A DNA stretch of 64,000 nucleotides, from contig JAIPGM010000004.1 of assembly GCA_021735655.1 (NCBI GenBank), positions 95,874-159,873 on the forward strand, written 5' to 3'. Made by a program: the position numbers and the translations under genes. Shown here in pieces: positions 3,716 through 28,151 of the stretch. The first letter of the stretch is position 1. Every line of letters begins with the position of its first letter. This DNA comes from Candidatus Omnitrophota bacterium. Lineage in GTDB: Bacteria > Omnitrophota > Gorgyraeia > Duberdicusellales > 4484-171. The notes below the pieces were generated by a model. The model was given only the letters and a program-made list of their open reading frames with translations. It was not told the DNA's origin and did no database searches.

Positions 3716-3766
3716 TTTTTAATCTTTAATCCTTACCCGTCCCCGATATTATAACTGCGCCTCTAA

Positions 3767-7151: not shown

Positions 7152-8164
7152 ATCAGTTGTTTTTTGATTGTTCGCCTTATTGCCCTTTTTAGTCTATTAA
7201 TAAACCCCCATAATTTAAAAAACTTTTTTCCTAGCCAATACCTTGGCGAACCCAAAAGGTGCTCAATATCATCAACCTTTCGCCTCTCTACTTGGATTAT
7301 TCCTTCATTTACATCTTTTATCATTTTTTTAATTTCTGGCGGATGTTGGCCGGAAAATCGTTCCAGCCAAGCCGGATAGTTATAAACATTATGCACTCGA
7401 TAGCCGCTTTCTAAACCCAAAAATATTTTTTGGTACCACTCTTGGAATCCTTTAAGTTGCGCCCATTTAGCTTGGTCGTAATACCGGCTTTTATCCAAGA
7501 CTTGTTTGGGGAAAACTAGCGAATAATGGTACAAAAAAATACCTTTCTTAATTAAGCTGTCTCCGTTGACCCATTTCAAGTTACGTAAATCCACACCTTC
7601 TGGATTGCAAACCGTTGGCGGCCGATGGTCAATATATCTATAGCCCGGCCCCCATTTAAATAAGCGATGATACCTTTGGGCCCAATATTTAGCAGGCTTT
7701 TCACGAAACAACCATCCATCAACCACATAATCAAATCCACCAAAAAAAGTTATCTGTTTAAAAGAAACAGCGGTGATCTTCGAATCGCTGCGCAGCATTT
7801 CTAATATCGCCTGCATGTCTTGGGGTTTATAAAACTCATCTACATCAACCTGCCAAAGATAATTTCCCGTTGCCCGTTGCGCATAGGCTTGCGACATTTC
7901 CTCTTTTTCGCTCCAAAATCCTTTAGCTGTAATGATCTCGATTTTGTTATCGGGGTCTTCCTCCTGTTTAAACCGCTGGAGTACATCAAGTGTCCCATCA
8001 ACTGAATGTCCGTTAGCTGTGGCTAGATCTGCTGCCGCGCGAACCGCGCCCTCTACCACAATGATTTGATGAGCGAAAGGATATAAAGACCGTAAACAGT
8101 AGCGTGTAAACGGCTCTCCGTTAAACACGATCAGGCCAAAAGTGATTTTCGGATAATTACTCAT
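7148..8164 (-). CDS. Glycosyltransferase, GT-A fold (family 2-like)
   Basis: The ORF track starts at 8239. The likely true start is the internal MSNYPKITFGLIVFNGEPF at 8164, which avoids a long overlap with the upstream gene. VDVDEFY is a DxD-like motif. Confidence 0.5.
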   Translation of the reverse strand: MSNYPKITFGLIVFNGEPFTRYCLRSLYPFAHQIIVVEGAVRAAADLATANGHSVDGTLDVLQRFKQEEDPDNKIEIITAKGFWSEKEEMSQAYAQRATGNYLWQVDVDEFYKPQDMQAILEMLRSDSKITAVSFKQITFFGGFDYVVDGWLFREKPAKYWAQRYHRLFKWGPGYRYIDHRPPTVCNPEGVDLRNLKWVNGDSLIKKGIFLYHYSLVFPKQVLDKSRYYDQAKWAQLKGFQEWYQKIFLGLESGYRVHNVYNYPAWLERFSGQHPPEIKKMIKDVNEGIIQVERRKVDDIEHLLGSPRYWLGKKFFKLWGFINRLKRAIRRTIKKQLI

Positions 8165-9596
8165 TTTTCGCCAAGGTAACCGCAGCAAAAGTAATACCGA
8201 AAGGTGTCCAAAGCATGAATAACTGCCAGGGAGTAACAAAAAATGTAGAAGAGGTAATACTTACCAAAGACAAAGCAACCACACAAGCTATTCCGCTGAA
8301 AGCTAAGGTTTGACAACCAGCATCGCTAGAATGCAAAGCCCGAAGATAGGCCTTTGTGAACCGGACAAAAATCCAAATAAAACCAATAAATCCGATGATC
8401 CCAAAAGAAAGCCATAAATATAAATAGGTGTTATGGGCAAACCAAGTATAGACATAGCCATATTTTTGGAATCCCTCCAGGCCCACACCAAAAAAAGGAT
8501 GCTCCAAAGCTACCAAAGCCGACTCTTGCCACCGCCAAATGCGGTCAGCTAATCCGGGTGCTTGGCTGGGGTCGTTCAAAACTTCTAAGACGCGCTGTTG
8601 AGCCCGCGCCCCCAAAGAAAACTTAGCGTAATACCAAAAACCAAAAAATAAGGCAAATGCCGGTAAGCCTATCTTCCATAAAGTTCCGGCAAAGCTTGCC
8701 GGAGAGTGTTTCTTTACTTTCAAAGCCAATACAGCCAACACCACTGTAGAAATTCCGGTTGCAATTAACGCCATTCTTCCCTGGGACTTGATAATTATTA
8801 AAGCCGCTACCAACATAATTCCGGCAGCCGCTAGGCGCTTCCCAAAAGACCGGTCGTTTAACCAGAGATTGAATGCTAATATCGCTACAAAAGCATAGCT
8901 AATCGGGGTGACTTCAGCCCCCATAAATAAAGAGTCACACAAAGGTAGATTAATTATCTTCATCAAGCGCTCGCTGCCGATAACTGAGGCGCTCATAAGT
9001 TCCTGCTCATAACTAGCTAGCTGCGGCGCATAAAGAAAAACTAAACCCAGCAATCCAGCTGAAATTAAAAAACACCAAAGCAGGCGCTCGGCTTGTTTAA
9101 TATTTCTAATTAACCAAAAACATAAAAAACAAAACAACGGCGGCAGAAAGCACACCGTTCGAATCACGATAAGCGAATATTCGCCTTTGTACTCAGCTGA
9201 TATGTAAGCGAGTAAAGCACCGATAACAAATAGCGTAAAAGGTAAAAAAGGAAAACCGCCTCGGGTAGGGATAGATGGGACCTTCTTAGAAACACTGCCA
9301 AGAAGCAGTCCGAGAATAATTAGCCCCCAGATAACTAGTTCAGTTGGATAGACCCGGGTCAATGCCGGAGAGAAACTCTGTAACCTTGAGTCCAAAGGCA
9401 GCCAATAGACAAAGACCGCCACGCACAAAAAGGGAAACAAGCCGATCCTTTTAATCAAATAAAGACTACCGGCCAAGCCGCCAAGCCCCAAAATCAAATA
9501 TAAAAACCTTAGATTTTGAGAAACAATTGCCTGGCTGATTATGACTGCGGCACCTACCAAAGCAAAAAAGAATATTAGTTTTTTTATTCTCGCCAT
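8157..9596 (-). CDS. O-antigen ligase/polymerase-like (Wzy_C family) integral membrane protein
   Basis: 479 aa. About 10-12 hydrophobic helices. Periplasmic loop region typical of Wzy/WaaL-type proteins. It sits in a glycosyltransferase locus. Confidence 0.55.
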   Translation of the reverse strand: MARIKKLIFFFALVGAAVIISQAIVSQNLRFLYLILGLGGLAGSLYLIKRIGLFPFLCVAVFVYWLPLDSRLQSFSPALTRVYPTELVIWGLIILGLLLGSVSKKVPSIPTRGGFPFLPFTLFVIGALLAYISAEYKGEYSLIVIRTVCFLPPLFCFLCFWLIRNIKQAERLLWCFLISAGLLGLVFLYAPQLASYEQELMSASVIGSERLMKIINLPLCDSLFMGAEVTPISYAFVAILAFNLWLNDRSFGKRLAAAGIMLVAALIIIKSQGRMALIATGISTVVLAVLALKVKKHSPASFAGTLWKIGLPAFALFFGFWYYAKFSLGARAQQRVLEVLNDPSQAPGLADRIWRWQESALVALEHPFFGVGLEGFQKYGYVYTWFAHNTYLYLWLSFGIIGFIGFIWIFVRFTKAYLRALHSSDAGCQTLAFSGIACVVALSLVSITSSTFFVTPWQLFMLWTPFGITFAAVTLAKNE

Positions 9597-9612
9597 CTCT
9601 TAAGCCGCCCTT

Positions 9613-11427
9613 TCAATAAAACTTTTGCTCTTCCCAATATTGGTAAAACTTACCTTTCTTCTTAAGGAGCTCGGTTAAATCCCCCTCCTCTATGAATCGA
9701 CCATCCTCGATTACCACGATCTTATCGGCATTCTTTATCGTAGAAAGCCTATGAGCAATAGTTATCGCAGTTTTCCCTTTAACCATCTGCTCAACCGCCT
9801 CCTGTATAAGCCGTTCGGTATGTGTGTCAAGAGAGCTGGTAGCTTCGTCTAAAATTAAAATCTCAGACCTTCTAAGCACTGCTCGCGCGATAGAAACTCT
9901 CTGCTTTTCCCCGCCTGAAAGCTGGACCCCCCTATCTCCTACCAAGCTATCCAAGCCCTTCGATGCTTTCAAAATAACTTCGTGCAATCTTGCCTTTTTG
10001 GCAACAACCATTATTTCTTCTTCCGAGCATTCTCTATCTAAGCCATAGGTAATGTTATTTCTAAGGGTATCATTAAAAAGTGCTGAGTCTTGACTTACCA
10101 GGGCTATTTGCCCTCTCAACGATTCCACTGTAAACTCTCTTATATCGGTGCCGTCGATAAAAATTGTTGAAGGTGGGCAATCGTAAAAACGTAAAATCAA
10201 ACTGATAAGCGTGGTTTTCCCGGCTCCGGTCGAACCAACTATCGCAGTCATTTTTCCCTTTTCGACCGAAAAACTAACATCTTTTAATGTTTGTATTCCT
10301 TTTTTATAAAAAAAGTTTAGATGCCTAAAATCTATGCTTTCGTTTAATTGTTTAAACTCTTTTCGGCCGCCGTTTACAAAAAATTTATTTTTATCGTCAA
10401 AAACCTTTAATATGCTCCTCATCGGGCCTTCTATATTAGCTAAAGAAACTCTAAACAAACCTAGCCCTTTTGAGTAGGTAAAAATCCTCTTGATAATAAC
10501 GATGTACACCGCAAAGATTGCTACATCCCCTGACTGTTTTTTTACGATCAAAAAGGCGGTGGCAGCGATAAATAATAAGAGCATTACTAAGGCAATAATT
10601 TCATGAACCAAAGGCACTAAATAACGCTTTCTATCAACATTAAATTCCAGCTCTTCTATGGCATCGCTGGCCTTACTGAAACGATGTTCCTCCTTCTTCT
10701 CTGCAACACAGGCTTTAACTAAAAGCATATTAGATAATATATTGAAAATACTTTGGCCCAAAACCGTATGGGCACCGGCCCAAACAACTGAACTTTTTTT
10801 GATCTTATCAATAAGCCATTGCGAAGAATAAAATACCAGGGGAAAAACAAGCATTGCGAAAATTGTCAACTTCCAAGAAATCATCACCATTATAATAATG
10901 TATACAACAAGCATAAGTATCAAAATGCATGAATTTTCTAAAATCATGAGCTGACTCGAAATTTTGTTGGTAAAACCGATGAGCACCTGGTTAAGACTCC
11001 CTGTGCTGTTAAGGTCGAAATGCTTTTTCCCAAAACCAAGGTAGCGCTTGAAGATATTTTTTCTTAATTGATTGGAAAACTTCCTTACCTGACGAGCTAT
11101 GCCAACGGCGGATAGATATTGAAAAATGTTTTTTGCGACTGCTGTCGTCGCAATCATGACCAAAAGCAAGATAAATAATGAAGTATTTGTTGCGCTAAGC
11201 GAATCTGGAATTTGTTCAATAATATTTTTTAGAATGGGGACTTCTCTGACAAAGATAAAATCTGCTTTAATGATTCCCCTTACCGTGGGGATTAAAAGCG
11301 TTATACTAAGACCCTCAAACAGCGCTGCCCCTAAAGCTAAAACTACCGGAAAAATAAAATGCGACAACTTTACATCTATTCTGTGAAAGAATTTTATTAA
11401 CCGTACAAGATTCAAATACAGTTTCAT
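9613..11427 (-). CDS. ABC transporter permease/ATPase, MsbA-like exporter (probable glycolipid flippase)
   Basis: 604 aa. N-terminal 6-TM domain. Walker A GSTGAGKTT. Signature LSGGEKQRVSIARA. Walker B ILILDEATSSLD. Confidence 0.85.
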   Translation of the reverse strand: MKLYLNLVRLIKFFHRIDVKLSHFIFPVVLALGAALFEGLSITLLIPTVRGIIKADFIFVREVPILKNIIEQIPDSLSATNTSLFILLLVMIATTAVAKNIFQYLSAVGIARQVRKFSNQLRKNIFKRYLGFGKKHFDLNSTGSLNQVLIGFTNKISSQLMILENSCILILMLVVYIIIMVMISWKLTIFAMLVFPLVFYSSQWLIDKIKKSSVVWAGAHTVLGQSIFNILSNMLLVKACVAEKKEEHRFSKASDAIEELEFNVDRKRYLVPLVHEIIALVMLLLFIAATAFLIVKKQSGDVAIFAVYIVIIKRIFTYSKGLGLFRVSLANIEGPMRSILKVFDDKNKFFVNGGRKEFKQLNESIDFRHLNFFYKKGIQTLKDVSFSVEKGKMTAIVGSTGAGKTTLISLILRFYDCPPSTIFIDGTDIREFTVESLRGQIALVSQDSALFNDTLRNNITYGLDRECSEEEIMVVAKKARLHEVILKASKGLDSLVGDRGVQLSGGEKQRVSIARAVLRRSEILILDEATSSLDTHTERLIQEAVEQMVKGKTAITIAHRLSTIKNADKIVVIEDGRFIEEGDLTELLKKKGKFYQYWEEQKFY

Positions 11428-11879: not shown

Positions 11880-13007
11880 TTATTGGCTATTGCCTAGACT
11901 CGCCTTAAGTATCTTGAAAAGAATCGCGGTCAACTCTCCTGAACTTTTAGGATTTCGTAACAGCTCCCAAACTAGGGTTGCGTGGCGCTCAAAATCGCCT
12001 TCGCGCTCAATGGTGGTAATATTTTTTTTAGCGAAGGAAAATATTCGCTTAACATCTTGATCGCTTAGCTTTTGAAATATCTTTCGAGCTCTCAAGGGTA
12101 TTTTTAATTCTCGGCCAAATCTCTGCATCCAAAGCGAAGGATAGCTAGAATACCTCTTCTCAATAATACACTCGGCTAATGTTTCAGCACCACGCATACC
12201 CATATAAATTCCGCCATAAGTTAGTGGCTTAGTTTGAGAAGCGCTATCACCGACCAAAAATACTTTCTCCCGAGATATATCCTTATGCTGAGTTAATGGC
12301 ACAGCTCCAGCAAATTTTTCAATAACCTCCCCGTTCATTTTTTGCCTTTTAATGAAAGTCAATAAATCTTGATAAGGGTTTTTAGAGATAACCCCGACTC
12401 GGGCCACCCGCTCTGACTCTGGAATTACCCAATAAAAATAAGGCCGCTCTATATATACTTCTACTAAATCCTTTCTCTGGGATTTATGTGCCATGCGAAA
12501 CTGGACCCCCTTCAAGGTGCTCCCCTTATAATTATTAGTAACAAACCCTTTGGTTGCAGAGTTAGCTCCGTCAGCACCAACAACAATATCTGCCAAAATC
12601 TCTCCCTTGTCGGTTTCGATAATATAGCTGCCGTTTTCTTTTTCCAGACCAAGGAATTTAGTTTCAAAAAGTATATTAAGACCTTTGCTTAAGTTTTTAT
12701 CGAAAGTTTCTCGGTCAACCACATAAGCGACTTTCTTCTTTTTAAGCACAAACTTGTCTTTCCCCAAACGAATAACTGCTCCATTTATCGTATTTGAAAC
12801 GCAGCCCCGAGCAATCGACACCTTGGCTTCGCTAAAAACCTTTCCACCGACCAGCCCGGCGCAATGCACTGGTCGGCCTATTTCCTTATGATCTTCTATA
12901 AGTAAAGGGTTTAGCCCCGATCCCTTAAGAAGCTGTGCCAAATAACAACCTACTGGGCCCGCTCCTATAATAACTATTTTTTTTTGTTTCTTGGTTTCTC
13001 TCTTCAT
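11880..13007 (-). CDS. FAD-dependent oxidoreductase, geranylgeranyl-reductase family
   Basis: 375 aa. N-terminal IVIIGAGPVGCYLAQLL dinucleotide-binding motif. Confidence 0.6.
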   Translation of the reverse strand: MKRETKKQKKIVIIGAGPVGCYLAQLLKGSGLNPLLIEDHKEIGRPVHCAGLVGGKVFSEAKVSIARGCVSNTINGAVIRLGKDKFVLKKKKVAYVVDRETFDKNLSKGLNILFETKFLGLEKENGSYIIETDKGEILADIVVGADGANSATKGFVTNNYKGSTLKGVQFRMAHKSQRKDLVEVYIERPYFYWVIPESERVARVGVISKNPYQDLLTFIKRQKMNGEVIEKFAGAVPLTQHKDISREKVFLVGDSASQTKPLTYGGIYMGMRGAETLAECIIEKRYSSYPSLWMQRFGRELKIPLRARKIFQKLSDQDVKRIFSFAKKNITTIEREGDFERHATLVWELLRNPKSSGELTAILFKILKASLGNSQ

Positions 13008-13045: not shown

Positions 13046-13486
13046 TTAAAGATTCAAATCAAATATTAATTTATCGCCAGCTCTTAGCCCCACATCTTCA
13101 ACTATACCAGCGCTTACTTCCAAAACATAAAGAGCTTTCTTATCCGGACTCAATACCGAACAATTATCTAAAGTGCATGGCTTAGCGTTTTCTTTAATAA
13201 AAACTGCTTCCTTATTTTTATTCAACCAAACTATGTCTAAAGGTATCTCAGTGTTTTTCATCCAAAAATTATGGATTTGTTCTTCGGTAAAAATAAACAG
13301 CATCCCTCTATCCCGATCAAGCCTCTTGCGAAACATTAATCCTTGCTCGCGCTGTTCCTGAGTTGCAGCAATCTCCACAACAAAGCAGTGCTGTTTAAAA
13401 CAAACTTTGCTCGGCTGGTCATAATGGCAACCAACCACAGCAAGGATTAAAACTGTTACGCCAATTAAAATAGACCGAAAATACAC
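13046..13486 (-). CDS. DUF192 domain protein
   Basis: 146 aa. Signal/TM N-terminus. EQREQGLMFRKRLDRDRGMLFIF...IPLDIVWL matches the DUF192 core. Confidence 0.5.
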   Translation of the reverse strand: MYFRSILIGVTVLILAVVGCHYDQPSKVCFKQHCFVVEIAATQEQREQGLMFRKRLDRDRGMLFIFTEEQIHNFWMKNTEIPLDIVWLNKNKEAVFIKENAKPCTLDNCSVLSPDKKALYVLEVSAGIVEDVGLRAGDKLIFDLNL

Positions 13487-13498: not shown

Positions 13499-14377
13499 TT
13501 ACTTGAGCCAATTTGAAAGATCTCTTTGGATAAGTTTTTCTAGTTCTAAAATATCTTGTCTATACAAATTAACTATCCGCCTTCGTGCCTCGGGTGATAG
13601 AGATGGTTTAACCAGGCAGGCTTTCCAAAATCGATCACGAAGAGCCGAAAAAAAACGCAAAACTATTTTTGGCAAAAAACTTCTAAGGCGTTTAACCACC
13701 GCTGTAGCCTTGCGCCCAAGCACTAGCCACCCACGCATGACGATATTTTTTGGCAGGCCAGAAGGGTTATGTCTAATAGAGATATCTGGTAAAAAATTCT
13801 CATCTACATTCAAAAACCTAAAAATATCTCTTAATAAGTCAAAAGGGTTAGTTTGTAAATCTTCGTAAAGAAAAATTTTTATCTGCGAACGGTCAAAAAG
13901 TTTAAAATAATGCTTAAGGTGCCGATAATAAGAGTTGTTTTCTAGATGCTGTCTGCGGTATCCAGGCGACCCCGTATCTATTTGTCCAAGGAAATCACTA
14001 AAGCTGTCGGGCTTCTCTTTGCCTTCTCGACACCGATGCATAAAATTCGAATATAGTTTATCAGCCGGGTCACGAAAGATAACAATGAGTTTTACTTTTG
14101 GGATATAGCGCTTTATTTGCTCAGCGGCTTTTGGCTTAGACAAATAAATAATTGATGCTTCGCCAATAGCCCTTTCTCTTGAAACATTTTTGAATAACTC
14201 TTTGTAATTTTCTAAATTAGCTATTCTCCCGTTTTTTTTCTTTTCGCCTTCAAAGCCAAAAAAATTTGGCTCCTTAACCGGACTCATATAAATTTCGGGA
14301 TGCTGCCCCAGATAGTTATAAAGCGAGGTCGTACCAACCCTCCCAGTACCAATAATCAAAAAATTAGGCATTGCCAT
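13499..14377 (-). CDS. Sulfotransferase family protein
   Basis: 292 aa. N-terminal PNFLIIGTGRVGTTSLYNYL is the PAPS-binding 5'PSB motif. RDP region is 3'PB-like. Confidence 0.65.
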   Translation of the reverse strand: MAMPNFLIIGTGRVGTTSLYNYLGQHPEIYMSPVKEPNFFGFEGEKKKNGRIANLENYKELFKNVSRERAIGEASIIYLSKPKAAEQIKRYIPKVKLIVIFRDPADKLYSNFMHRCREGKEKPDSFSDFLGQIDTGSPGYRRQHLENNSYYRHLKHYFKLFDRSQIKIFLYEDLQTNPFDLLRDIFRFLNVDENFLPDISIRHNPSGLPKNIVMRGWLVLGRKATAVVKRLRSFLPKIVLRFFSALRDRFWKACLVKPSLSPEARRRIVNLYRQDILELEKLIQRDLSNWLK

Positions 14378-14578: not shown

Positions 14579-16969
14579 TTACTCAATCGTATAAAGATAA
14601 TCGCCTATCGCACGAGCAACCGTTTCCATGCTTTGTGCGCTGCATTTATCAACTGTATCACCTGTTGTATGGGAATACGGGTATTCAAAATCAATCAGCA
14701 AAAAGCTTGGAATTCCGGCTTGATTAAGCGGAATGTGATCGTCTCTAATATCTTGCCCAACTCTTTTTTGAAAAACATTACCGTTGATTTCCTGTGCGAT
14801 ACTCCAAAAAGATTCTACTTGGTTAGGAGAATTTTTAACCGATAATCCTTCTTTCAAGATTCTTAAATCTTTATCGCACACCATATCCAATACAATCCCA
14901 CCGATTGGCTTGGTATTGCTGTATATTTCGCTCAAATGCTCAGCAAAGTAAGTGGAGCCGAGCGGCTTCCAATAAGTATAATCTCCACCTTGATTTTCTT
15001 CACCTTCTTCTCCATCAAAGAAAACAACATCAATCCCTATGCTTGGCTCCGCCTGTGCGTTGGCGAATAAACGAGCTAATTCCACAAGAACTGCCACTCC
15101 CGAAGCAGAGTCATTTGCCCCCGGCACTGGGTGGTCGGGGTTCCTTTTGTCCTTGTCGGCAAATTTTTTGCTGTCGTAATGCGCTCCAAGTATAATCCGC
15201 CGCTCTTGGGCGGGAAACAATCGACCAATGATATTTGTCAATCTATGAACTTTCCCGTCTTGTCCAGCCTGCTCCCAGGTCTGAATTTTTACCTCCGGCG
15301 CAAGTTCTTTCATTTCGGCCAATATAAAATTTTGGGCTTTTTCGTGTCCACCTGCGCTTAGGTAACGTGGGCCATAGCGAAGTTGCTGAGCAACGAGAGC
15401 TAGCATTTCTTCACCCTTAAGGGATGACTTCTGATTAAAGCTATTGCGCAAAATTTGTCCGGTCAAATATTCAACTGGCGAAAAATTGTCGGTCAATACA
15501 GGATAAACCGAAAACTCAAATCGGTTCATATCGATAATCTTATTTTGTAGGGATCGAATAATTTCATTAGGATGTTCAACTACCGAAGCTGCGCCTAGAT
15601 CTATCCTTTTATCGCTATTGTGGCCAACTAAAACGATATTCTGTGATTCGATTATCCCCGGCGAATCAACCGCAAAAAAATAACTATTCGGAAAAACCGA
15701 TTGGAATGTCTTTATCTCGGACATAATAAGCGATGGTTGTTGACGAGACAAACTCCCAATCAGGCTTGCGATAAAAAGACCCTCGTCACTAAGTTTCTCT
15801 TTCGCGATTGTAAAAAATTCTTTGGTAGTAAAGTGTGCCGGAACAGAAAAAAACGAGTAGTATACATCGCTAAAAATTAAATCGTATTTTTTATTTGAGT
15901 CTCGCAACAGGCGACGTCCATCCTCTATATAGTTTCTCAGCCGCGGTGTGTTGGTTACCCGAAAATACTTTCTTGAAAGGTTAAACAAAGAAGGTTCTAT
16001 CTCAGAAACATCTACTGTCGCCTCTGGCAACTCCGCGAGCAATGCTCTGGGGAGAGAATACGCACCACCACCGATAACAAGAGCATTTTTTACGTCGGGC
16101 GTAAAAATCTTATAAAGAGCATAGTATTTTGCATAGCCCCCTACCAGATCGATCGGATCATCGGAATCGAGAAACATAGCCCCTGAGATGCTGCGGTCTT
16201 GCTGAAAAAACCTTGTTAGTCGCCCATCAAAAACACTATCATAGATAGTAATTCTTTCATAAACGCCATCTTTACTGTAAACAACACCTTCATTTTCTTG
16301 GTATTCAATAAACAGCGCCATGATGAAAAAAAGCATAAACACAAATAGAACACCATACAAATATTTCTTTTTCAAACCGAGCACAAAAAGAGGGACTAGC
16401 CCGAGAAGAAACAAAACTACTCCATTAGCAATAACAATTTGATTTATTCCAAAATTAGGTATGAGCACAAATCCTGCCAACAAGCTTCCGAATATACTTC
16501 CTAAAGTTGAACAAAAGAAAACTTTTCCGGCGATCGTTCCAACGCCTTGGTTTGGAGAGTGAACGCTTTGTAATTTAATTGTATAGGGAGACAATGTGCC
16601 GAGCAATAATGCTGGTAGCAGAAATAAAAATATTGAGGACACTAAAGGTCCGGCGGAAATTGAAAAGGCCAAGCTCAAAATCGGCAAAAGAATAACGCCG
16701 ACAAAATGAAACAAAAGTAGCGTAAGTCCGCTCAGAAGAATGATGCTAAAGAACCAACTCGAAGATGGATAACGATCAGCCAGCTTGCCGCCGGCATAGT
16801 ATCCAAAACTTAGCGCGGCAAGGATAACACTTATTACGCTCGATACGGTAAAAATCGTATTGCCGTAATAAGGAGACAAAATACGAACCGCAACCACTTC
16901 GATAACAAGTACCGAGGCGCCAGTGACAAAAACTACAAAAAGCAAAAAATATTTTTTAAGAAATTCCAT
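14579..16969 (-). CDS. Fusion protein: multi-TM N-terminus, spermidine-synthase-like aminopropyltransferase domain, C-terminal M28-family peptidase domain
   Basis: The ORF track begins at a TTG at 16993. The first ATG (MEFLKKYF) is at 16969. The TM region is followed by LVIGGGAYSLPRAL (spermidine synthase SAM fold). The C-terminal GAHYDS...PGANDSASGVAVLVELARLF...VVFFDGEE is the M28 metal-binding signature. Confidence 0.55.
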   Translation of the reverse strand: MEFLKKYFLLFVVFVTGASVLVIEVVAVRILSPYYGNTIFTVSSVISVILAALSFGYYAGGKLADRYPSSSWFFSIILLSGLTLLLFHFVGVILLPILSLAFSISAGPLVSSIFLFLLPALLLGTLSPYTIKLQSVHSPNQGVGTIAGKVFFCSTLGSIFGSLLAGFVLIPNFGINQIVIANGVVLFLLGLVPLFVLGLKKKYLYGVLFVFMLFFIMALFIEYQENEGVVYSKDGVYERITIYDSVFDGRLTRFFQQDRSISGAMFLDSDDPIDLVGGYAKYYALYKIFTPDVKNALVIGGGAYSLPRALLAELPEATVDVSEIEPSLFNLSRKYFRVTNTPRLRNYIEDGRRLLRDSNKKYDLIFSDVYYSFFSVPAHFTTKEFFTIAKEKLSDEGLFIASLIGSLSRQQPSLIMSEIKTFQSVFPNSYFFAVDSPGIIESQNIVLVGHNSDKRIDLGAASVVEHPNEIIRSLQNKIIDMNRFEFSVYPVLTDNFSPVEYLTGQILRNSFNQKSSLKGEEMLALVAQQLRYGPRYLSAGGHEKAQNFILAEMKELAPEVKIQTWEQAGQDGKVHRLTNIIGRLFPAQERRIILGAHYDSKKFADKDKRNPDHPVPGANDSASGVAVLVELARLFANAQAEPSIGIDVVFFDGEEGEENQGGDYTYWKPLGSTYFAEHLSEIYSNTKPIGGIVLDMVCDKDLRILKEGLSVKNSPNQVESFWSIAQEINGNVFQKRVGQDIRDDHIPLNQAGIPSFLLIDFEYPYSHTTGDTVDKCSAQSMETVARAIGDYLYTIE

Positions 16970-16986
16970 CGAAACGAAGTATAGCG

Positions 16987-17037
16987 AGGTCAATGGGATT
17001 CGACCCCACGATCACCTGCGTGATAGGCAATAGCCCC
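16987..17037 (-). repeat. Partial direct repeat of the tRNA-Asp 3' half (att-site remnant), left island boundary
   Basis: gaggtcaatgggattcgaccccacgatcacctgcgtgataggcaatagcccc aligns with 34678..34724 inside tRNA-Asp. There are identical blocks of 19 and 11 bp and about 5 mismatches over ~48 bp. No tRNA 5' half is adjacent. Confidence 0.7.
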
Positions 17038-17576
17038 TAAATAAAAACTCCTCTATTTTTAATGTCAACTACGTTTTAATTATAACATGTTGGTCAAATA
17101 GTGTCTATGCCCGGTTTAGATCTATATGGCCTAGGCTGGATTTGTGTCAATTAAGATAAAAAAATAAATTATCGATTTTTGATTGTTCATAAAATAAAAT
17201 TTATTTTGCTATCGCTAATATTATACTTCTTCCCGAAACTAAAGCAAACTTTATTAATCTTCACCCTTCTAATATCGAAATTAAAATATAAATTGCTTTA
17301 GTCTCTGTGAGCATGTTTTCGGGGATTTGATAGATAATGAAGACGGGCCGAATGTGACACTACTCAAACTACACAAGCCCAATCAATACAACTACTTGTG
17401 AAACTTTATAAAAAGCGTTCTATGGGCACTTTGATGTCCCTCGGCCAACCCATTAATAATTCAGCACCTTATCGAAAAGGTGTTTTATCACAACACCGGC
17501 AAAAAACCATGAAAATGGTCACTCAAAACTAAAATTCTCGATCCCTATACAAGCGCTAATCTTGGCGAGTGAAAAT

Positions 17577-18434
17577 CTACCTTTTACCGATAACCCGCCT
17601 ATACCTACCACGTTTTGGGTTTATCATAAGCTGACGAAAAGCCTCAGCTCGCTGATTTTCCCTCCACTTTTGTTCTTCAGCTTGTTGTTTCTCTTTTTCT
17701 CGTTGCTCATCCATGTGAGATAGAATATCTTGAGCTAAAAGCAAACGTGAATTATTTAAGGCACATTCTACAAAGTCTTTTCGACTAAGGCTGGCAACTA
17801 CAGCCCATCCGCCCATATCTCCCGGAAAAAGACACCAAAGAAAAGATCGCCTTTCATCTGCCTGATCGACAGGGGGAATACCTTGAAAATCAAAATAAAC
17901 TGGTACTGAGCTTTCAAGCCACCTTTTAGGAAAACATTCTTCTGGGAAATAGGTAAAATATATGCCTTTCCAAATTGAAGATCCAAAGTCTTTATGCCCT
18001 GACCCGGCATGGAAATCATTAGACCCTTTACAAAAACGTCGGTAGTCCATCGACAATCGTGTACCGTTAACAAGCCACACCATATTTTTATAAAAATTTT
18101 CACGACTCTTTATCTCATCAGAGTCGATTGCCGAATGCTGAAATTCTATTACAAGCCCACTGATCGTTTTTACATCTGCAATATGTTTTTCTTCATTCAT
18201 AGAATCAAAGTGCCCAAGCTCCTGCCATTCTTTCGGAAAATGTTTCTTCCATTCTCTGTGCCACTCCGCTTCATTCTCCCACCATGGATCACACAACGAT
18301 TTTCGCTTATGCTTCCAATGCCAAACTTTTTCTGCCCCACAATAAGCGATCATATCGCTTTGGCAATGCACACACGAACCTCGTAACCCCGGCTGAGCTT
18401 CCGTCTTATCTCCGCCAACCAGAGCAAATCTCAT
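17577..18434 (-). CDS. CoiA-like competence-family protein (putative nuclease-fold protein)
   Basis: 285 aa. N-terminal Cys-rich CVHCQSDMIAYCG...WHWKH. EKHIADVKT...VIEFQHSAIDSDEIKSRENFY resembles the CoiA core. Confidence 0.45.
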   Translation of the reverse strand: MRFALVGGDKTEAQPGLRGSCVHCQSDMIAYCGAEKVWHWKHKRKSLCDPWWENEAEWHREWKKHFPKEWQELGHFDSMNEEKHIADVKTISGLVIEFQHSAIDSDEIKSRENFYKNMVWLVNGTRLSMDYRRFCKGSNDFHAGSGHKDFGSSIWKGIYFTYFPEECFPKRWLESSVPVYFDFQGIPPVDQADERRSFLWCLFPGDMGGWAVVASLSRKDFVECALNNSRLLLAQDILSHMDEQREKEKQQAEEQKWRENQRAEAFRQLMINPKRGRYRRVIGKR

Positions 18435-18679
18435 ATTTTATTCCTTTTTTTTTCGGTGTTATTAGTGCAAGCCCATACTAAAGCGACAATCCACGCAATT
18501 CCCCCAGTAAAAACCATAAACAGGTTTAAGATAAATATGGCTAAAGCATTATTATGCTTCCTCTTTCTAGCAACAACAGTCGGCAAGAAATAAAAACCGA
18601 TGGCAACGATACCGCCAATAATTCCCAAAACAATCCATGCTACAGGGGCTTGATCCCACCAAGCAATAAAATCGCCCAT
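18431..18679 (-). CDS. Superinfection-immunity-like small membrane protein (Imm_superinfect-like)
   Basis: 82 aa, two TM helices. FLPTVVARKRKHNNALAIFILNLFMVFTGGIAWIVALVWA matches the Imm_superinfect pattern. Overlaps the CoiA-like gene by 4 nt. Confidence 0.5.
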   Translation of the reverse strand: MGDFIAWWDQAPVAWIVLGIIGGIVAIGFYFLPTVVARKRKHNNALAIFILNLFMVFTGGIAWIVALVWACTNNTEKKRNKI

Positions 18680-18710
18680 TCATTACTCCTAGAGAAAATC
18701 TCTTAAACTT

Positions 18711-18956
18711 TTACTTTTGTTCCTCATTTTCAAGAACATAACCTTGACCATAATCTATTATCTCTACCCATTGTTTACCTTTGTTTATGTTTAAATCCCA
18801 GACTCTGCCGGTTATGGTGTCACATTTCATCCACATCATTCCACCCAACTGACCACTTCCTTGATAAGTTGTGACTTGATATCTACCATTCAGTGCAAAC
18901 AAAAAGGCTGATACTGCCAAAGAAATACACAGAATCATTATTCCAAAATTCTTCAT
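18711..18956 (-). CDS. Small secreted/membrane-anchored hypothetical protein
   Basis: 81 aa with an N-terminal signal/TM segment. Confidence 0.35.
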   Translation of the reverse strand: MKNFGIMILCISLAVSAFLFALNGRYQVTTYQGSGQLGGMMWMKCDTITGRVWDLNINKGKQWVEIIDYGQGYVLENEEQK

Positions 18957-18997
18957 ATATCCTCCTGAGTCATTTAAACACTACCGTTTTGTAATCT

Positions 18998-19393
18998 CTA
19001 TTCTTCCTCATTTACAAAAATCGCCGTTCCTTTAACAACCTTGGCATTTACAGGCGCAACCCATATTGCACCACTCCCATAACCACCGGCCATAGTAGAT
19101 GTCTGAGTTCCCGTATTTGTTAATAACACACCGTTTGCGCCGATTTTTGCCGCTTGTTTTTTAAGCTCCGCAACTGCATAATCTTGTGAGTCTTGATCCG
19201 TCCATCCCGAATCACTTGATGCTTCAACAACCCCAAGCACATCATATTTCTTTGGTTCCTCTAAATAAAGCTTTACTGATTGTGGATCCGTAGATGGCCG
19301 GGCAGTTCCAGTAAGGATAACACTACCCGTTGCACAGCCTATGAGAAACGAAGCTACTAGGCAACAAACAATAATTTTGGAATATTGTTTCAT
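18998..19393 (-). CDS. Lipoprotein, hypothetical
   Basis: 131 aa. Signal peptide with lipobox LIGC. Confidence 0.45.
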   Translation of the reverse strand: MKQYSKIIVCCLVASFLIGCATGSVILTGTARPSTDPQSVKLYLEEPKKYDVLGVVEASSDSGWTDQDSQDYAVAELKKQAAKIGANGVLLTNTGTQTSTMAGGYGSGAIWVAPVNAKVVKGTAIFVNEEE

Positions 19394-20154
19394 CTTTTTG
19401 CCCCCTCTATTTTTTCTTTATCAGAAAATATGGAAATAACAGAAGCTTTGTTGTTGTCACCGCCAAACCATATCCAAAACACATTGTCATCTGAAGTCAT
19501 CATCGCACCGGTATATTTAGAGAACATATTTTTAGGGTTTGCTTCCTTAAAAGCATCCAAAAATTCGGGATAAAAAATCTCATCAAATTTTACCAAAAAT
19601 TCATCTCTATTTTTAATTTCGCCGAGATCTGTGTTTAATGGGTAATAAACCATGTTGGAGACTTTTTCTTTGTCTCGATTTAGGACTGATCTTTTGAAAT
19701 CTTGGGCAAAATTATCCACCATTTCATCATCGTCCATTCCGCCAATAGCATACATGGAATTCAAATCGCCTGCACTGCCATAATCCATTTTAAGCCTTAT
19801 ATGCCCAGTTGCTTCCGCAGAACTTATGTCTCCCGCAATAACTTCACGATTCAGCTTGGAATCTCCATAAGCGTCATCTTGATCTTGAAAAGACGCATTG
19901 ATCACTATGCCATCCTCATTTTTTAAAGTAATTTTTCTGCCATCAAGAGTTCCGGAAAGCGGAATGCTCATATAATCCGAATCAAAATATAACTCACCAA
20001 TTACATTCTCCTGATCATATACAAGAGTTAATCCACCAGTTTGACCTGCAATGTCGCCCCTGTATGTCCAGTGCCAATCTTTGGTGAATGAATCACAATG
20101 CCCCTCTGCGCCAGTGAACAACAGACAAAAAACAAATATAAGCAATGCCCGCAT
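19390..20154 (-). CDS. Secreted hypothetical protein
   Basis: 254 aa. N-terminal signal peptide. Acidic. No recognisable domain. Confidence 0.4.
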   Translation of the reverse strand: MRALLIFVFCLLFTGAEGHCDSFTKDWHWTYRGDIAGQTGGLTLVYDQENVIGELYFDSDYMSIPLSGTLDGRKITLKNEDGIVINASFQDQDDAYGDSKLNREVIAGDISSAEATGHIRLKMDYGSAGDLNSMYAIGGMDDDEMVDNFAQDFKRSVLNRDKEKVSNMVYYPLNTDLGEIKNRDEFLVKFDEIFYPEFLDAFKEANPKNMFSKYTGAMMTSDDNVFWIWFGGDNNKASVISIFSDKEKIEGAKR

Positions 20155-20156
20155 TC

Positions 20157-21467
20157 CTAGACCTCTTTTTCCTTTAAGAAATCAAGTACGGGCTTGAATT
20201 TCTTTATTGTACTGATGATTTCGCCCTCTAACTCTACTGATTCTGTAAGCACCTTAGTTCCTCTGTCAATAGAATACCTAAAGTGTATACCGGGAGCCCC
20301 CGGCTCTTTATCCGCTTTTTTCAAAACATCACAAATATATTGAACGTCTTTTTGCGTATTAATATCACTCAACTTCATTTCAAAGAATTTAACCCATTTT
20401 TCATTGCCGGGCATTATGCGTTTCCCTGTTCTCGGCAAACGTTTTGAAACTACCAGCCTCGATTCCTTTCTGGCACCGCTTATAACCTGAAGGAATTTAT
20501 TTGTATTTGTAGATATCCGATTAAAAAATATGCCGATAGGGGTCTTACTCTGAGATGTCCGACCGTTGCGGACAACAGTGTTGATATCCAAACAACTCTT
20601 TGAAACCTCAATAGTAAAATTACATTGGTTAAAAACGTCCTTGCCATCCTTTGGTCTTTTAATTGCGACCCAAGCAAACCTCTCATCCTTGCCACTTCTC
20701 GATATGTTCCCGGGCTTAATAAATGAATATTCAGAACCGATTTCTTTCGGCAGTTTTTCTTTTATGATATTTGCCAGAGCTTTAAGTTTTTTCCTGAGAA
20801 TAGGGACGTAATACGGATTGGGGTCAATCCAAAAATCAAAATCCGAGTCTTTGAATCCATTAAATTCGGTCATTACGACTACCTCCATGTAATCAATAAA
20901 CTGCTCAATTAATTGTGCAACCGCAGATAGCGATTTATTTCCTTTTATTTTCTCAACTGTGCGACGGCATATTTTATGAACCTTCGACCAGCTAAGGTAT
21001 CTAACACGGTTATCGCTAATGCTATTTAAACTGCTTTTGTCATCTAAATTGTTCGTTATAACAACAAGGACATCTTTAGCACCTATATCGCTCAAATGCC
21101 GTCTAATTTGATCAAGATCCAATCTTGCCCGAACTTTCGATTCAATATGGATATTGTAATCTGCCAAATCGATCAAAGCATCAGGTCTGCTACCGCTTAA
21201 TCCTTTCTGCAGTTTAAAAGAAACCACCGGGCGATTTGGTGCCTCGATTGCTTTTAAGAATCCAGACAAAAGGTCGACAAAACCTGCCTGACAGCAAAAT
21301 TCGAATATATTGACCAGCCCTTTGGTAGTGTTATCCTCAACTTGGAAATCATACAAGGATTCTTTATCTCGCTTAGAAGGCCCCCGGTAATAAAAAAATA
21401 TGTTCTGATGAGGATCTCTCACGCTTTTCTCCCATATTCGGTCTTTAAAAATTTGCCATAAGCCCAC
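20157..21467 (-). CDS. Hypothetical protein with an N-terminal PD-(D/E)xK-like nuclease motif
   Basis: 436 aa. RPDALIDLADYNIHIESK fits PD...(D/E)xK spacing. No other domain recognised. 49-nt overlap with the upstream 197-aa gene. Confidence 0.4.
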   Translation of the reverse strand: MGLWQIFKDRIWEKSVRDPHQNIFFYYRGPSKRDKESLYDFQVEDNTTKGLVNIFEFCCQAGFVDLLSGFLKAIEAPNRPVVSFKLQKGLSGSRPDALIDLADYNIHIESKVRARLDLDQIRRHLSDIGAKDVLVVITNNLDDKSSLNSISDNRVRYLSWSKVHKICRRTVEKIKGNKSLSAVAQLIEQFIDYMEVVVMTEFNGFKDSDFDFWIDPNPYYVPILRKKLKALANIIKEKLPKEIGSEYSFIKPGNISRSGKDERFAWVAIKRPKDGKDVFNQCNFTIEVSKSCLDINTVVRNGRTSQSKTPIGIFFNRISTNTNKFLQVISGARKESRLVVSKRLPRTGKRIMPGNEKWVKFFEMKLSDINTQKDVQYICDVLKKADKEPGAPGIHFRYSIDRGTKVLTESVELEGEIISTIKKFKPVLDFLKEKEV

Positions 21468-22012
21468 AGGGCTTCATCAAGCCGCTTCCATGCAACCCCT
21501 TTTTTGCATAGCTCATTAAAAAATGGGGCATACTCCGCAAAATATATTTGTTCTTTTTGCTTGTTGCTATTTGGAATTTCATTGCGTCGGTTTTGACTCA
21601 AAAAGATAAAAGCCCTATAAACATGCTGATCAAATATCGGGAAATCATTCGGCGTGATTATGTGTAAAAGATATATTTTCCAGATAGCTCCGTTTACAAA
21701 ACTGAAATCTTTTAAGAAAGAATCGAGGGAAAAAAAGTCCTTAAGGTTATTGATGACATTCAGCTTGGCTTTAATATTCGATAGCACTACTTCTTTTTTC
21801 TGGGATAGTTTACTCCCATTTTTCCAAATAAATAATTTATCAATATCATCGATGCTGAATTTTTTCTTTCCGATAATAGGGACGTAATAATCTTCCATAG
21901 GATAGTTATAAAAACTGCTCCAGAATTTAACAAACTCATCTATTGTGACATTTTTTGTGTTTAAAACCGGGAAATTCATTATTGCTCCGTTAAATTTTCC
22001 CCACTTGGACAA
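21419..22012 (-). CDS. Hypothetical protein, partner of the PD-(D/E)xK protein
   Basis: 197 aa. No recognisable motif. Overlaps and is likely co-transcribed with the downstream 436-aa gene. Confidence 0.35.
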   Translation of the reverse strand: MSKWGKFNGAIMNFPVLNTKNVTIDEFVKFWSSFYNYPMEDYYVPIIGKKKFSIDDIDKLFIWKNGSKLSQKKEVVLSNIKAKLNVINNLKDFFSLDSFLKDFSFVNGAIWKIYLLHIITPNDFPIFDQHVYRAFIFLSQNRRNEIPNSNKQKEQIYFAEYAPFFNELCKKGVAWKRLDEALWAYGKFLKTEYGRKA

Positions 22013-22059
22013 TAGGCTTCATCAGAAAAAACATTGTGCAAAATGTTATGATTTTACTT

Positions 22060-22557
22060 TTACTCATTCTTCTCCTTTTTTCCGTTCTTTATTACCTTTT
22101 CTAATGCGTGGATAACTTTATCGACTTGAATGTTTATATCACGCTTTATTAGATGCTCCCATAAACGGACCACAATCCACCCTTTTCTTTTTAAAAATAG
22201 AGTGGTTTTTTTGTCTCGCAATCGATTCTTTTCTATTTTTGTTTTCCAAAAATCATTCTTTAATAAATGCTTCCAGCGAGAATACTGCCAACCATGCCAA
22301 AAATCGCTATCTAAGAAAACACACAGTTTAGCTCTTTTAAAAACGATATCTGGCTTCCCTTTTATAAGTTGCACATTTCTCTCAAATGTTTTCCTTGTTC
22401 GTTTTTTTAATGCGCGAATGAAATCTTCCTCAAATTTTGTGTCTCGAGACCGTATTTTTGACATTACAACAGAACGGTGTTCTTTTGTGATTTTGTCTGA
22501 TTCTCGTTTTTTCTTAAAATTGCGACCTAAATAGTTTTTGATTCTTCTCTTTGTCAT
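22060..22557 (-). CDS. vsr: Very-short-patch-repair endonuclease
   Basis: 165 aa. SKIRSRDTKFEEDF...GKPDIVFKRAKLCVFLDSDFWHGW matches the Vsr catalytic core. Adjacent to an m5C methyltransferase. Confidence 0.75.
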   Translation of the reverse strand: MTKRRIKNYLGRNFKKKRESDKITKEHRSVVMSKIRSRDTKFEEDFIRALKKRTRKTFERNVQLIKGKPDIVFKRAKLCVFLDSDFWHGWQYSRWKHLLKNDFWKTKIEKNRLRDKKTTLFLKRKGWIVVRLWEHLIKRDINIQVDKVIHALEKVIKNGKKEKNE

Positions 22558-22560
22558 AGC

Positions 22561-23736
22561 CTAATAAGACAATCCATATTTCTTCATTGCTTCTTTTAGT
22601 AATGGCGGTGATTTCCGTTCACCAAAAGCGTCCCCTAAAAGATGTACTATAAATTTCTCAGTTTTAGGTAAAATAACACTTGAATGCTGAACGACTAAAC
22701 TCACCCATTTATCAACCAGTTCTTTTGTTCTTATATATTCCTTTAATTCCCAATAGTGCCTGACCTCGTCAACCGTGAGTTTTGAAACAATTTCAATAAT
22801 TTCTTTAGCGTTTCTTTGGAGGTAATAAAATATCTTTGGAATCTTATGGTACGCCACGTCATTAATAACAATTGTCTGTTGTCCTCCAGCGGTAAATCTA
22901 TCTCTAAGCGAAGAATCCACCACACCATGACGAGCCGCTAACCAAGTCGCGAAATTTTGATATTTTGTTTGACTCCTACCAAATATCTCAGGGAATCTTG
23001 CCATAGCTTCATTTCTAAAGCGATTCTGTTTATCTTCATGAAGATTGCCCCACAAAGTAACTGTGGGACTTAGCATGGCGTCAACTTCATCCCCGGGATC
23101 CATCCACCAAGGTTCTTCTCCTTTTTTAGAAATTTTGCGAAAATAACGAACAACTTCCTTAATCGGATTATCTTGTTTCCGCAAAATGTTATATTCCGTT
23201 CCCATCTTATCAAATATGGTTTTCCCAGAATCAAGCTCCATATCTATCAAATATCTCGGGGAATGGGTTACAGCGATGTCGTAAAGACATTCTTCATATC
23301 TTCGAAACTTAAACTTTGGTGGAGCGACCAGTCTTCCAAAAAATAGATATATTCTTTCAACGCCTTCAACTCTTGTTGTTTCAAGGACACTATTGCCAGT
23401 ACTACGCCAATGATCTTGTTTGGTAATTTTTACTTCCACTCCGTAATATCGTTTCGCCACTATATCTGGAAATTTATGCCCTGATATAAGTTGTATCGTT
23501 CCTTCAAATTCAGTTTTTTTCGATGAAATCAACATAGAACCGTAGACTTCTTTTTCAAAATCTGATGAAGATAATCCGCAATAGCGCTTTGGAGCTTTTG
23601 ACGCTTCATCTTGAATGGTTTTAATCCCACCGTTCAATAAAGTCTCAAAAGAATTCTCACTCGCTTCTGTCCTTTTAGATATAATCATTTTAATCCTTTC
23701 TTGAAAATCTTTGGCCATAGCTCCTGTAGACGCCAC
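22561..23736 (-). CDS. Putative type II restriction endonuclease
   Basis: 391 aa. HKFPDIV...YGVEVKITK is a PD-(D/E)xK-like motif. Overlaps the methyltransferase by 52 nt, the classic RM gene arrangement. Confidence 0.5.
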   Translation of the reverse strand: MASTGAMAKDFQERIKMIISKRTEASENSFETLLNGGIKTIQDEASKAPKRYCGLSSSDFEKEVYGSMLISSKKTEFEGTIQLISGHKFPDIVAKRYYGVEVKITKQDHWRSTGNSVLETTRVEGVERIYLFFGRLVAPPKFKFRRYEECLYDIAVTHSPRYLIDMELDSGKTIFDKMGTEYNILRKQDNPIKEVVRYFRKISKKGEEPWWMDPGDEVDAMLSPTVTLWGNLHEDKQNRFRNEAMARFPEIFGRSQTKYQNFATWLAARHGVVDSSLRDRFTAGGQQTIVINDVAYHKIPKIFYYLQRNAKEIIEIVSKLTVDEVRHYWELKEYIRTKELVDKWVSLVVQHSSVILPKTEKFIVHLLGDAFGERKSPPLLKEAMKKYGLSY

Positions 23737-25693: not shown

Positions 25694-25746
25694 TTTAATC
25701 CCTCGTTTAATCCCTCATTTAATCCCTCACGCACGCCAAATCATAC

Positions 25747-25947: not shown

Positions 25948-25983
25948 TTCTTCCGCATTTTCTACCGCAATTACACTCTCATT

Positions 25984-27084: not shown

Positions 27085-27085
27085 C

Positions 27086-28007: not shown

Positions 28008-28151
28008 AGATCACGTCCTTTTAAAATGCGTGCGGAGAAGGGCGTCAAGGAGGTTTACCAAAACAACGCCCCTTATCAGTCGCATTTAACTGATAAAACC
28101 TCTGCGATGGAACAGTTAAGCATCGCATACAGTTTCCCCGCATTATTTGTT

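Follow-up and report, generated by a model that had tools for sequence, protein, structure and literature searches.

NHMT of Aspergillus nidulans (AN4663/Q5B467) is a membrane-bound methyltransferase with seven transmembrane (TM) helices up to residue 215, followed by a spermidine-synthase-like domain in which Ile322 replaces an acidic residue; it methylates the N-terminal histidine of secreted lytic polysaccharide monooxygenases (LPMOs), a substrate exposed only after signal-peptide cleavage, and its E340A mutant, altered in the essential glutamate that binds S-adenosylmethionine (SAM), is inactive (PMC10349129). On the bacterial side, the two-domain protein SEML1_0034 of Southlakia epibionticum has been assigned, by structure-based annotation, a major facilitator superfamily (MFS) part at residues 1-200 and a SAM-methyltransferase part at 221-475 (PMC10633639). 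Here we analyse a stretch of 64,000 nucleotides (hereafter, the window) from contig JAIPGM010000004.1 of a Candidatus Omnitrophota bacterium (assembly GCA_021735655.1, positions 95,874 to 159,873), in which a single gene encodes a protein of 796 residues that joins half of an MFS transporter and a spermidine-synthase-fold domain to a peptidase family M28 domain of the type II glutaminyl cyclase (QC) kind. The architecture is an undescribed variant assembled from known parts, an NF037959 core plus a QC-like M28 domain, and a literature search covering the fusion, QCs in Patescibacteria and membrane-bound spermidine synthases found no paper describing it. We tentatively favour the view that the protein is an outward-facing enzyme that modifies the N-termini of exported proteins, with the half-MFS part, probably as a dimer, supplying a cofactor or substrate.

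An earlier reading made from the letters of the window (the sequence-only reading) had proposed a three-part fusion with an M28 domain at its C-terminus, and domain searches back all three parts. Pfam Peptidase_M28 (PF04389) matches residues 579-790 far above its cut-off (110.8 bits vs 21.3, E = 8.8e-32, profile positions 1-191 of 193), and the motifs by which the domain had been recognised are located at residues 595-600 (GAHYDS), 620-628 (DSASGVAVL) and 650-655 (FFDGEE). Pfam Spermine_synth (PF01564) matches residues 289-442 (E = 9.1e-10, 38.8 bits vs a cut-off of 22.9), and the match of Pfam MFS_1 to residues 9-200 is weak and below its cut-off (17.1 bits vs 33.4). The NCBIfam model NF037959, 'fused MFS/spermidine synthase', spans residues 18-502 over profile positions 2-480 of 480, with 227.8 bits vs a cut-off of 40. 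An AlphaFold2 model of the whole chain, built with 35 homologues (pLDDT 89.3, pTM 0.84), has seven long helices up to residue 225, then a beta-rich region with a Rossmann fold, and then an alpha/beta domain. The ATG form of the protein (Table 1) is identical to NCBI MCF7908161.1, named 'fused MFS/spermidine synthase' of Candidatus Omnitrophota bacterium; an upstream TTG is unlikely to be used as the start codon.

More than 200 distinct full-length homologues were found, nearly all of them in Patescibacteria (the candidate phyla radiation, CPR), with hosts in Paceibacteria, Saccharimonadia, Microgenomatia, the Falkowbacteria group, Berkelbacteria and others. The best 120 clusters at 90% identity from a word-indexed protein search are near-full-length (757-852 aa, 57-69% identical), and all but one of them have both precomputed Pfam domains; an exhaustive search of 50%-identity representatives added ~30 more three-domain representatives, down to 38% identity. 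Conservation is given below for 201 distinct three-domain sequences, topology for an alignment of 35 sequences, and gene neighbourhoods for the 80 best loci from GTDB species representatives, ~55 of which carry the fusion gene as a single open reading frame (ORF). A few of the metagenome-assembled genomes (MAGs) with homologues are labelled Acidobacteriota, Bdellovibrionales, Micavibrio or Gammaproteobacteria, some of these labels looking unreliable (e.g. a 914-kb single contig labelled 'Gammaproteobacteria'). With the genome of the window labelled Omnitrophota, lateral transfer is possible.

Hydropathy reveals seven TM segments and no hydrophobic stretch beyond residue 230; hydropathy and the AlphaFold2 model agree that no TM helix follows residue 225 and that no hydrophobic stretch separates the two soluble domains. 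Lysine plus arginine average 8.6 on the N-terminus and loops 2-3, 4-5 and 6-7, vs 0.43 on loops 1-2, 3-4 and 5-6, a positive-inside pattern that is the same in 35/35 aligned sequences and therefore places the N-terminus inside and everything past TM7 outside. A motif-A-like loop (G61-x3-D65-R66) lies between TM2 and TM3, and in MFS proteins the motif-A loop is cytoplasmic. Both lines of evidence thus predict that the two soluble domains lie outside the cytoplasm, which answers, as a prediction, the question raised by the sequence-only reading of which side of the membrane the catalytic domains face. Two relatives agree with this outward topology: P0245, a stand-alone M28 homologue (58% identical), has an N-terminal signal anchor, and P0174 has a signal anchor and LamG domains ahead of the same C-terminal module. 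In P0174 the anchor and the LamG (concanavalin-like) domains stand in for the MFS part and for that half of the middle domain which binds SAM, with M28 following; P0174 may be either a true secreted derivative or a chimera produced by assembly.

The membrane domain is more than an anchor, because it is conserved as strongly as the catalytic domains, with TM5 nearly invariant and with E24 and R29 of TM1 invariant in the 35-sequence alignment and near-invariant among the 201 sequences; D65 is near-invariant as well. The six-helix bundle fold of MFS proteins is present, but the two bundles (12 TM helices) of a complete MFS chain are not, the protein having one bundle and one extra helix. Since a lone MFS bundle cannot form a transport path, the protein probably acts as a 6+6 homodimer. 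One relative, P0244, precedes the same soluble domain with 13 TM helices (6+7), and its two bundles together match Pfam MFS_1 above the cut-off, which suggests that the six-helix unit works in pairs; its extra helix occurs solely ahead of the soluble domain, suggesting that TM7 is merely a connector. With two bundles ahead of one spermidine-synthase-fold domain, P0244 resembles a naturally occurring 'fused dimer' of the membrane part.

Aminopropyltransferases are defined by the acid of their GGG(D/E)G loop, which repels the carboxylate of SAM and selects decarboxylated SAM (dcSAM). In the middle domain of the fusion protein the corresponding loop is GGGAYS, with A303 at the acidic position, and across the 201 sequences this position is A, I, V, S or M (Ile in 12 relatives), never D or E. 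The same alignment column separates GGGDG of the Bacillus subtilis and Thermotoga maritima SpeE proteins and GGGEG of thermospermine synthase from GLGGGS of METTL13, GGGAC of 3gjy and GLGIGT of NHMT (I322). G300-G302, E323, D350 and D368 are conserved in the 201 sequences, and because these are cofactor-site residues the domain is very likely a working SAM-family enzyme. We conclude from these motifs that the middle domain is probably methyltransferase-like and not aminopropyltransferase-like, and that polyamine synthesis by the fusion protein is unlikely. The sequence-only reading had suggested that the fusion may modify a surface polymer or a peptide instead of making polyamines: A303 and the predicted outward facing bear out its non-polyamine part, and of the two substrates the peptide is the likelier, the surface polymer having found no backing.

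The nearest sequence matches of the C-terminal domain in the Protein Data Bank are bacterial QCs (E = 1e-29 to 1e-35), with human QC at 1e-13 and the Vibrio aminopeptidase at only 1e-3. All of the best 50 Foldseek matches are type II QCs, with target TM-scores of 0.65-0.92 (Bacteroidales and Fimbriiglobus QCs 0.85-0.92, the remaining QCs 0.65-0.78). Residues were mapped (Table 1) by an HMM alignment to a human QC sequence whose numbering reproduces all published positions; D248 was equated with D695 by motif comparison only (LLDLIG vs VLDMVC), as it falls in the stretch between two aligned HMM segments. All five co-catalytic metal ligands (H597, D620, E655, D695 and H767) and the catalytic E654 are present in the window protein, in line with the M28 assignment, and the carboxylic triad (human E201-D248-D305) is represented by E654, D695 and D743. 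Among the 201 sequences, only two singletons (K) depart from glutamate at position 654, none of the listed patterns changes D695, and ~95% have D at position 743. The residue that follows the bridging aspartate is Asn or Asp in aminopeptidases and Ser or Gly in QCs (PMC7948796), and a Ser or Gly at this position goes with the second zinc site having been lost (PMC7948796, PMC11312887). In the fusion protein it is S621, and it is Ser or Gly in all but one of the 201 sequences (one Ala).

Joint replacement of two of the three Zn1 ligands (D620N with H767A/N/Y) is seen in 22% of the three-domain sequences, while the acidic triad, W667, H597 and both cysteines of the C698/C776 pair are retained; the pair is near-invariant, replaced together in 2 sequences. 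Because the two ligands are lost together while the remaining residues stay, a strictly zinc-dependent peptidase is disfavoured as the family-wide function, and the pattern fits a cyclase or a module that binds N-termini; for a tick QC there is a claim of catalysis without metal (cited in PMC7948796). At approximately 25 of the 80 loci the homologue has two domains only (~500-545 aa) and is up to 63% identical to the N-terminal part, thus closer to it than many three-domain forms (41-55%). Five loci in MAGs labelled Acidobacteriota or Acidimicrobiia (L042, L043, L046, L047 and L057) encode proteins of 675-735 aa in total, in which M28 is without its central catalytic part and the N-terminal two domains remain fully conserved. 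We conclude that M28 is an accessory part that joined an older core of two domains, because close relatives do without it and because over a fifth of the members that have it are without two zinc ligands. A split version of the fusion was considered and rejected, as no separate M28 gene was found within 10 kb of any of the ~25 two-domain homologues. In one locus (L067, 9977-12242), ORFs of 509 and 244 aa abut, probably through a frameshift or sequencing error in that MAG.

We suggest that both enzyme-like domains would be exposed at the outer side of the cytoplasmic membrane, where their substrates would be the free N-termini of exported proteins or peptides. The cyclase-like domain would bind the N-terminal residue, either converting N-terminal Gln or Glu to pyroglutamate or merely holding the N-terminus, and the spermidine-synthase-fold domain would transfer a methyl group from SAM, as NHMT does on the LPMO histidine and METTL13 on the N-terminus of eEF1A. 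The 6+6 homodimer, in turn, would pass cytoplasmic SAM or the acceptor substrate to the outward active sites. What the two soluble domains have in common is that characterised members of both families recognise free N-termini (QCs for one; NHMT and METTL13 for the other), and NHMT is a precedent for a seven-TM protein with a spermidine-synthase-fold methyltransferase acting on signal-peptide-cleaved proteins. The class of substrate, the use of SAM, dimerisation and transport are points that we infer. A more ambitious version of the same idea, in which the protein would be a self-contained extracellular machine for maturing N-termini, its 12-helix dimer channel exporting SAM into the NHMT-like domain and its QC-like domain capturing or cyclising secreted N-termini, seems to us unlikely.

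Several observations weigh against an outward enzyme acting on N-termini. SAM is cytoplasmic, and no bacterial case of a SAM-dependent reaction beyond the membrane is known to us; that the MFS half could deliver it is something we purely infer. Pyroglutamate formation blocks the alpha-amine and is incompatible with alpha-N-methylation of the same residue, and because the two reactions exclude each other in this way, the cooperation of the two domains is left unexplained. Whole-domain similarity barely splits methyltransferases from SpeE: on a common scale, phmmer gives 41.7 bits for 3gjy, 31.7 for NHMT, 30.4 for METTL13 and 26-27.6 for SpeE proteins, a gap of ~4 bits, and for this reason the argument for a methyltransferase rests on the motif and the architecture. 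The nearest structures to the entire middle domain are, in fact, SpeE-like. The hallmark Trp of QCs before the last His (human W329, PgQC W298) is S766 here, and across the family position 766 is mostly Phe, then Tyr and rarely Trp, which is why we call the domain QC-like and not a QC. Homology between the TM domains of NHMT and the fusion protein is undetectable by sequence (hhalign of the TM region alone: score 14.4, E = 0.22, within the range of 20 shuffled controls), and a collinear L-x-P-x-Y-G-x-T motif common to the two regions is not significant. Further to that, the two-domain SEML1_0034 scored as non-essential in Tn-seq of S. epibionticum (PMC10633639).

The search for substrates with a telling N-terminus adds to these points. 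A Bacteroidetes-type Q-rule was not found in ~1.2 Mb of host genomes screened with a crude home-made signal-peptide filter: Gln occupied position +1 in 22/216 candidates under loose settings and in 11/72 (15%) under strict ones, a share in the usual range for phyla without a Q-rule (PMC5837995). Small CPR proteins resembling pilins of type IV secretion systems (T4SS), considered as Gln-initiated substrates, had mixed N-termini that follow no rule. In the integrated element next to the fusion gene (Table 1), an ORF at 19390-20154 (-) encodes a predicted secreted protein that a crude predictor cleaves, with low confidence, before a His (...TGAEG|HCDSF...); its sole interest is that an N-terminal His is what NHMT-type enzymes methylate.

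Of the alternatives, the one that survives best, although we regard it as doubtful, is that the protein acts on an envelope lipid, a cell-wall precursor or a small amine and not on proteins. A lipid-linked or amphipathic substrate would then be flipped or presented by the MFS half and alkylated on its amine by the spermidine-synthase-fold domain, and M28 would be an amidase or peptidase working on the same molecule, e.g. a stem peptide or an amino-acylated lipid. A membrane domain that is conserved like the catalytic ones and keeps membrane-embedded charged residues would suit such a role, and the M28 clan includes non-peptidase amidases too. Polysaccharide/Wzy genes are found nearby in the window and in two of the three loci first examined; however, across the 80 loci neither these envelope genes nor the sulfotransferase gene are conserved neighbours, and the link to a surface polymer that the sequence-only reading had considered is not supported. 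Also in conflict with a lipid or cell-wall substrate, the closest relatives of the M28 domain all act on peptide N-termini.

It is quite unlikely, in our view, that the fusion serves nutrient scavenging, with an outward M28 aminopeptidase freeing amino acids, the MFS part importing them and the spermidine-synthase-like domain surviving as a structural or dimerising remnant. CPR bacteria are auxotrophic epibionts, the window protein has all five ligands of a di-zinc aminopeptidase, and some relatives have, as aminopeptidases do, a Tyr before the last His. A remnant, however, would not be expected to conserve its SAM-site residues in 201 sequences, the residue after the bridging Asp is of the QC and not the aminopeptidase type (PMC7948796), and both the members without two zinc ligands and the many close relatives that keep the other two parts without M28 are at odds with a peptidase as the centre of the system.

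A genuine membrane-bound polyamine aminopropyltransferase fused to a peptidase, as the names 'spermidine synthase' and 'polyamine aminopropyltransferase' imply, is very unlikely. The Pfam Spermine_synth match does exceed its cut-off and D368 aligns with the catalytic Asp of SpeE. Against this, the acid of the glycine-rich loop is missing throughout the family, the SpeE DSSD-type motif lacks its second Asp, and the protein stays far below the cut-off of every NCBIfam SpeE equivalog (PRK03612, 67.1 vs 472; PRK04457, 53.5 vs 304; PRK00811, 45.4 vs 260; TIGR00417, 44.8 vs 249.55); the domain is moreover predicted to lie outside the cytoplasm, away from dcSAM. Finally, that two or three genes were merged by a sequencing or assembly error is effectively refuted, since, even though the split gene of L067 shows that breaks do occur in MAG data, the search for the architecture gave >200 intact and distinct sequences from independent assemblies and sources with the same uninterrupted layout (41-69% identity), and AlphaFold2 models the complete chain with a pTM of 0.84.

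The fusion gene itself is essentially stand-alone. All-against-all clustering of ORFs in the 80 loci yielded no conserved operon partner, only low-frequency housekeeping synteny, CPR pilin-like genes and ABC transporters. Among the neighbours only a DUF192 gene recurs, found in 8 loci in addition to the window (beside or near the fusion gene in L037, L023, L048, L051 and L052, and also in L028, L059 and L054) and directly adjoining (0-90 bp) in 5, co-directional in some and convergent in others. The chance expectation is ~1 copy in the ~1.2 Mb surveyed, and as several of the loci come from one clade the count reduces to ~six independent events. The DUF192 protein of the window is predicted to be extracytoplasmic from its lipoprotein-type signal, and we consider DUF192 a candidate partner or substrate; the literature search gave no function for it.

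In the window, the fusion gene lies where the sequence-only reading had placed it, between the sulfotransferase gene and the boundary of an island. The latter is an integrated element of ~17.7 kb delimited by a tRNA-Asp gene and a direct repeat of the tRNA 3' end, the repeat being the far attachment site, with the fusion gene just outside. Besides the cargo listed in Table 1, the element holds several ORFs without a family. A sigma-70-like site inside the end of the element may be the current promoter of the fusion gene, supplied by the element, although promoter-like sites in the region are no more numerous than expected by chance; an Rfam scan of the 580-bp upstream gap gave nothing credible. 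On a larger scale, cumulative GC skew has its minimum at ~42000-44000, and the coding strand changes from minus before ~32 kb to plus after ~44 kb; this could be a replication origin region.

Table 1. Features of the fusion gene and its surroundings, in window coordinates
Feature	Position	Strand	Remarks
Tripartite protein gene, complete, 796 aa	14579-16969	(-)	stop codon 14579-14581; ATG start
Alternative TTG start	16993 (ORF 14579-16993)	(-)	inside tRNA-like repeat
Six TM helices, single MFS-type bundle, aa 1-198	16376-16969	(-)	
Seventh TM helix, aa 201-225	16295-16369	(-)	connector taking the remaining chain to the outer face (predicted)
Spermidine-synthase-fold domain, aa 228-512	15434-16288	(-)	N-terminal beta-sheet and Rossmann fold; GGGAYS (A303), E323, D350, D368
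M28 domain, type II glutaminyl-cyclase kind, aa 519-796	14582-15415	(-)	key residues (human QC in brackets): H597 (H140), D620-S621 (D159-S160), E654-E655 (E201-E202), W667 (W207), D695 (D248), D743-D744-H745 (D305-D306-H307), Y763 (F325), H767 (H330); pair C698/C776
Envelope-polysaccharide gene run (GT4, GT2, Wzy_C/O-antigen-ligase-like, ABC exporter)	337-11427	(-)	co-directional
FAD-dependent geranylgeranyl-reductase-like gene	11880-13007		
DUF192 gene	13046-13486	(-)	lipoprotein-type signal; two genes downstream of fusion gene
Sulfotransferase gene	13499-14377		
Integrated element	16980-34752		
50-nt direct repeat of tRNA-Asp 3' end	16980-17029	(-)	45/50 identical; ends 11 nt upstream of ATG; marks element end
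Sigma-70-like promoter match	17079-17107	(-)	TAGACA-17-TATAAT and upstream TG, 11/12; ~110 nt upstream of ATG, inside element end
C5 DNA methylase	23685-24974		element cargo
RadC	24971-25693		element cargo
YhcG/DUF1016 nuclease	25984-27084		element cargo
NrS-1-like primase-polymerase	29572-31935		element cargo
Large serine recombinase	33060-34715	+	element cargo
tRNA-Asp	34674-34752	(-)	other end of integrated element

Patescibacteria make up a large share of bacterial diversity and live attached to other cells, their surface biology being mostly unknown, and the fusion family is conserved over many of their classes at 40-70% identity. The database name 'spermidine synthase' is probably wrong for this family. 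If the protein is indeed an outward methyltransferase, it would provide a bacterial context for the recently discovered fungal seven-TM N-terminal methyltransferase, raise the question of how a SAM-dependent enzyme works outside the cytoplasm and suggest that surface proteins of CPR carry N-terminal modifications (pyroglutamate, methylation) that have gone unrecognised. Should the self-contained machine with a SAM channel prove real, it would represent the first SAM-dependent protein methylation shown outside the bacterial cytoplasmic membrane, and it would give the fungal LPMO histidine methyltransferase a prokaryotic counterpart or ancestor type that is concentrated in host-dependent CPR. 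Even if an outward methyltransferase is the wrong answer, the corrected annotation and the defined set of residues would still be useful.

Compared with known systems, the fusion protein resembles NHMT in having seven TM helices (~215-225 aa) directly before a spermidine-synthase-fold domain. For this comparison the NHMT protein was rebuilt from machine-read DNA (Supplementary Note 3, PMC10349129), giving 558 aa with I322 and E340 at their published numbers. I322 aligns with A303 and E340 with E323, so that both proteins have a hydrophobic residue instead of the acid. BLASTP finds 26% identity over 231 aa (E = 1e-11), in an alignment that begins right after TM7 in both, and hhalign gives a probability of 99.6% over the whole chain; the substrate of NHMT is, topologically, on the side predicted for the soluble domains of the fusion protein. 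The two differ in a specific segment next to the active site, VFTGEA (389-394) in NHMT and VYYSFF (369-374) here, the latter conserved in the fusion family, and NHMT is a fungal protein without an M28 domain.

The C-terminal domain shares with bacterial type II QCs (PgQC 6qql, TfQC 6qro, BtQC 7d1d, Fimbriiglobus QC 7d1b and Acidobacteriales QC 7d18) the Zn1 ligands, the Glu-Asp-Asp triad, a small residue following the bridging Asp and the Trp that corresponds to PgQC W193 and human W207, as well as, by prediction, a location outside the cytoplasm at the cytoplasmic membrane. It differs in being the C-terminal part of a polytopic fusion and not a lipoprotein, in having Ser (Phe or Tyr in most relatives) in place of the Trp before the last His, and in its third Zn ligand, which is Glu as in animal QCs, vs Asp in the bacteroidal ones; a fifth of the fusion family is without two Zn ligands, and the hosts of the fusion show no Q-rule. 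With SpeE and thermospermine synthases (1iy9, 1inl, 6bq2 and 1uir), the middle domain has in common the fold as a whole, N-terminal beta domain included, along with the Glu that binds ribose, the Asp that binds adenine and the Asp that follows strand 4, whereas the missing acid of the glycine-rich loop, the membrane anchoring, the predicted outward orientation and the scores far below the equivalog cut-offs set it apart.

A functional analogy can also be drawn with the prepilin peptidase PilD, a polytopic membrane enzyme that generates an N-terminus and then carries out SAM-dependent N-methylation of this new N-terminus. It is an analogy only: the folds are unrelated (an aspartic protease and another methyltransferase region), PilD works at the cytoplasmic face and there is no homology.

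In overall layout there is a likeness to the two-domain NF037959 proteins (~500 aa, e.g. SEML1_0034), which the fusion protein matches end to end over residues 18-502, with up to 63% identity. TM7x_01235, annotated as a spermidine synthase in TM7x, is higher at the initial encounter with the host. NCBI names do not reflect the M28 domain and most JGI names are 'spermidine synthase' only, with one homologue (P0078) named glutaminyl-peptide cyclotransferase. The definition of NF037959 stops at about residue 500, and what distinguishes the fusion protein from this family is the extra QC-like M28 domain of 280 aa that lies outside it.

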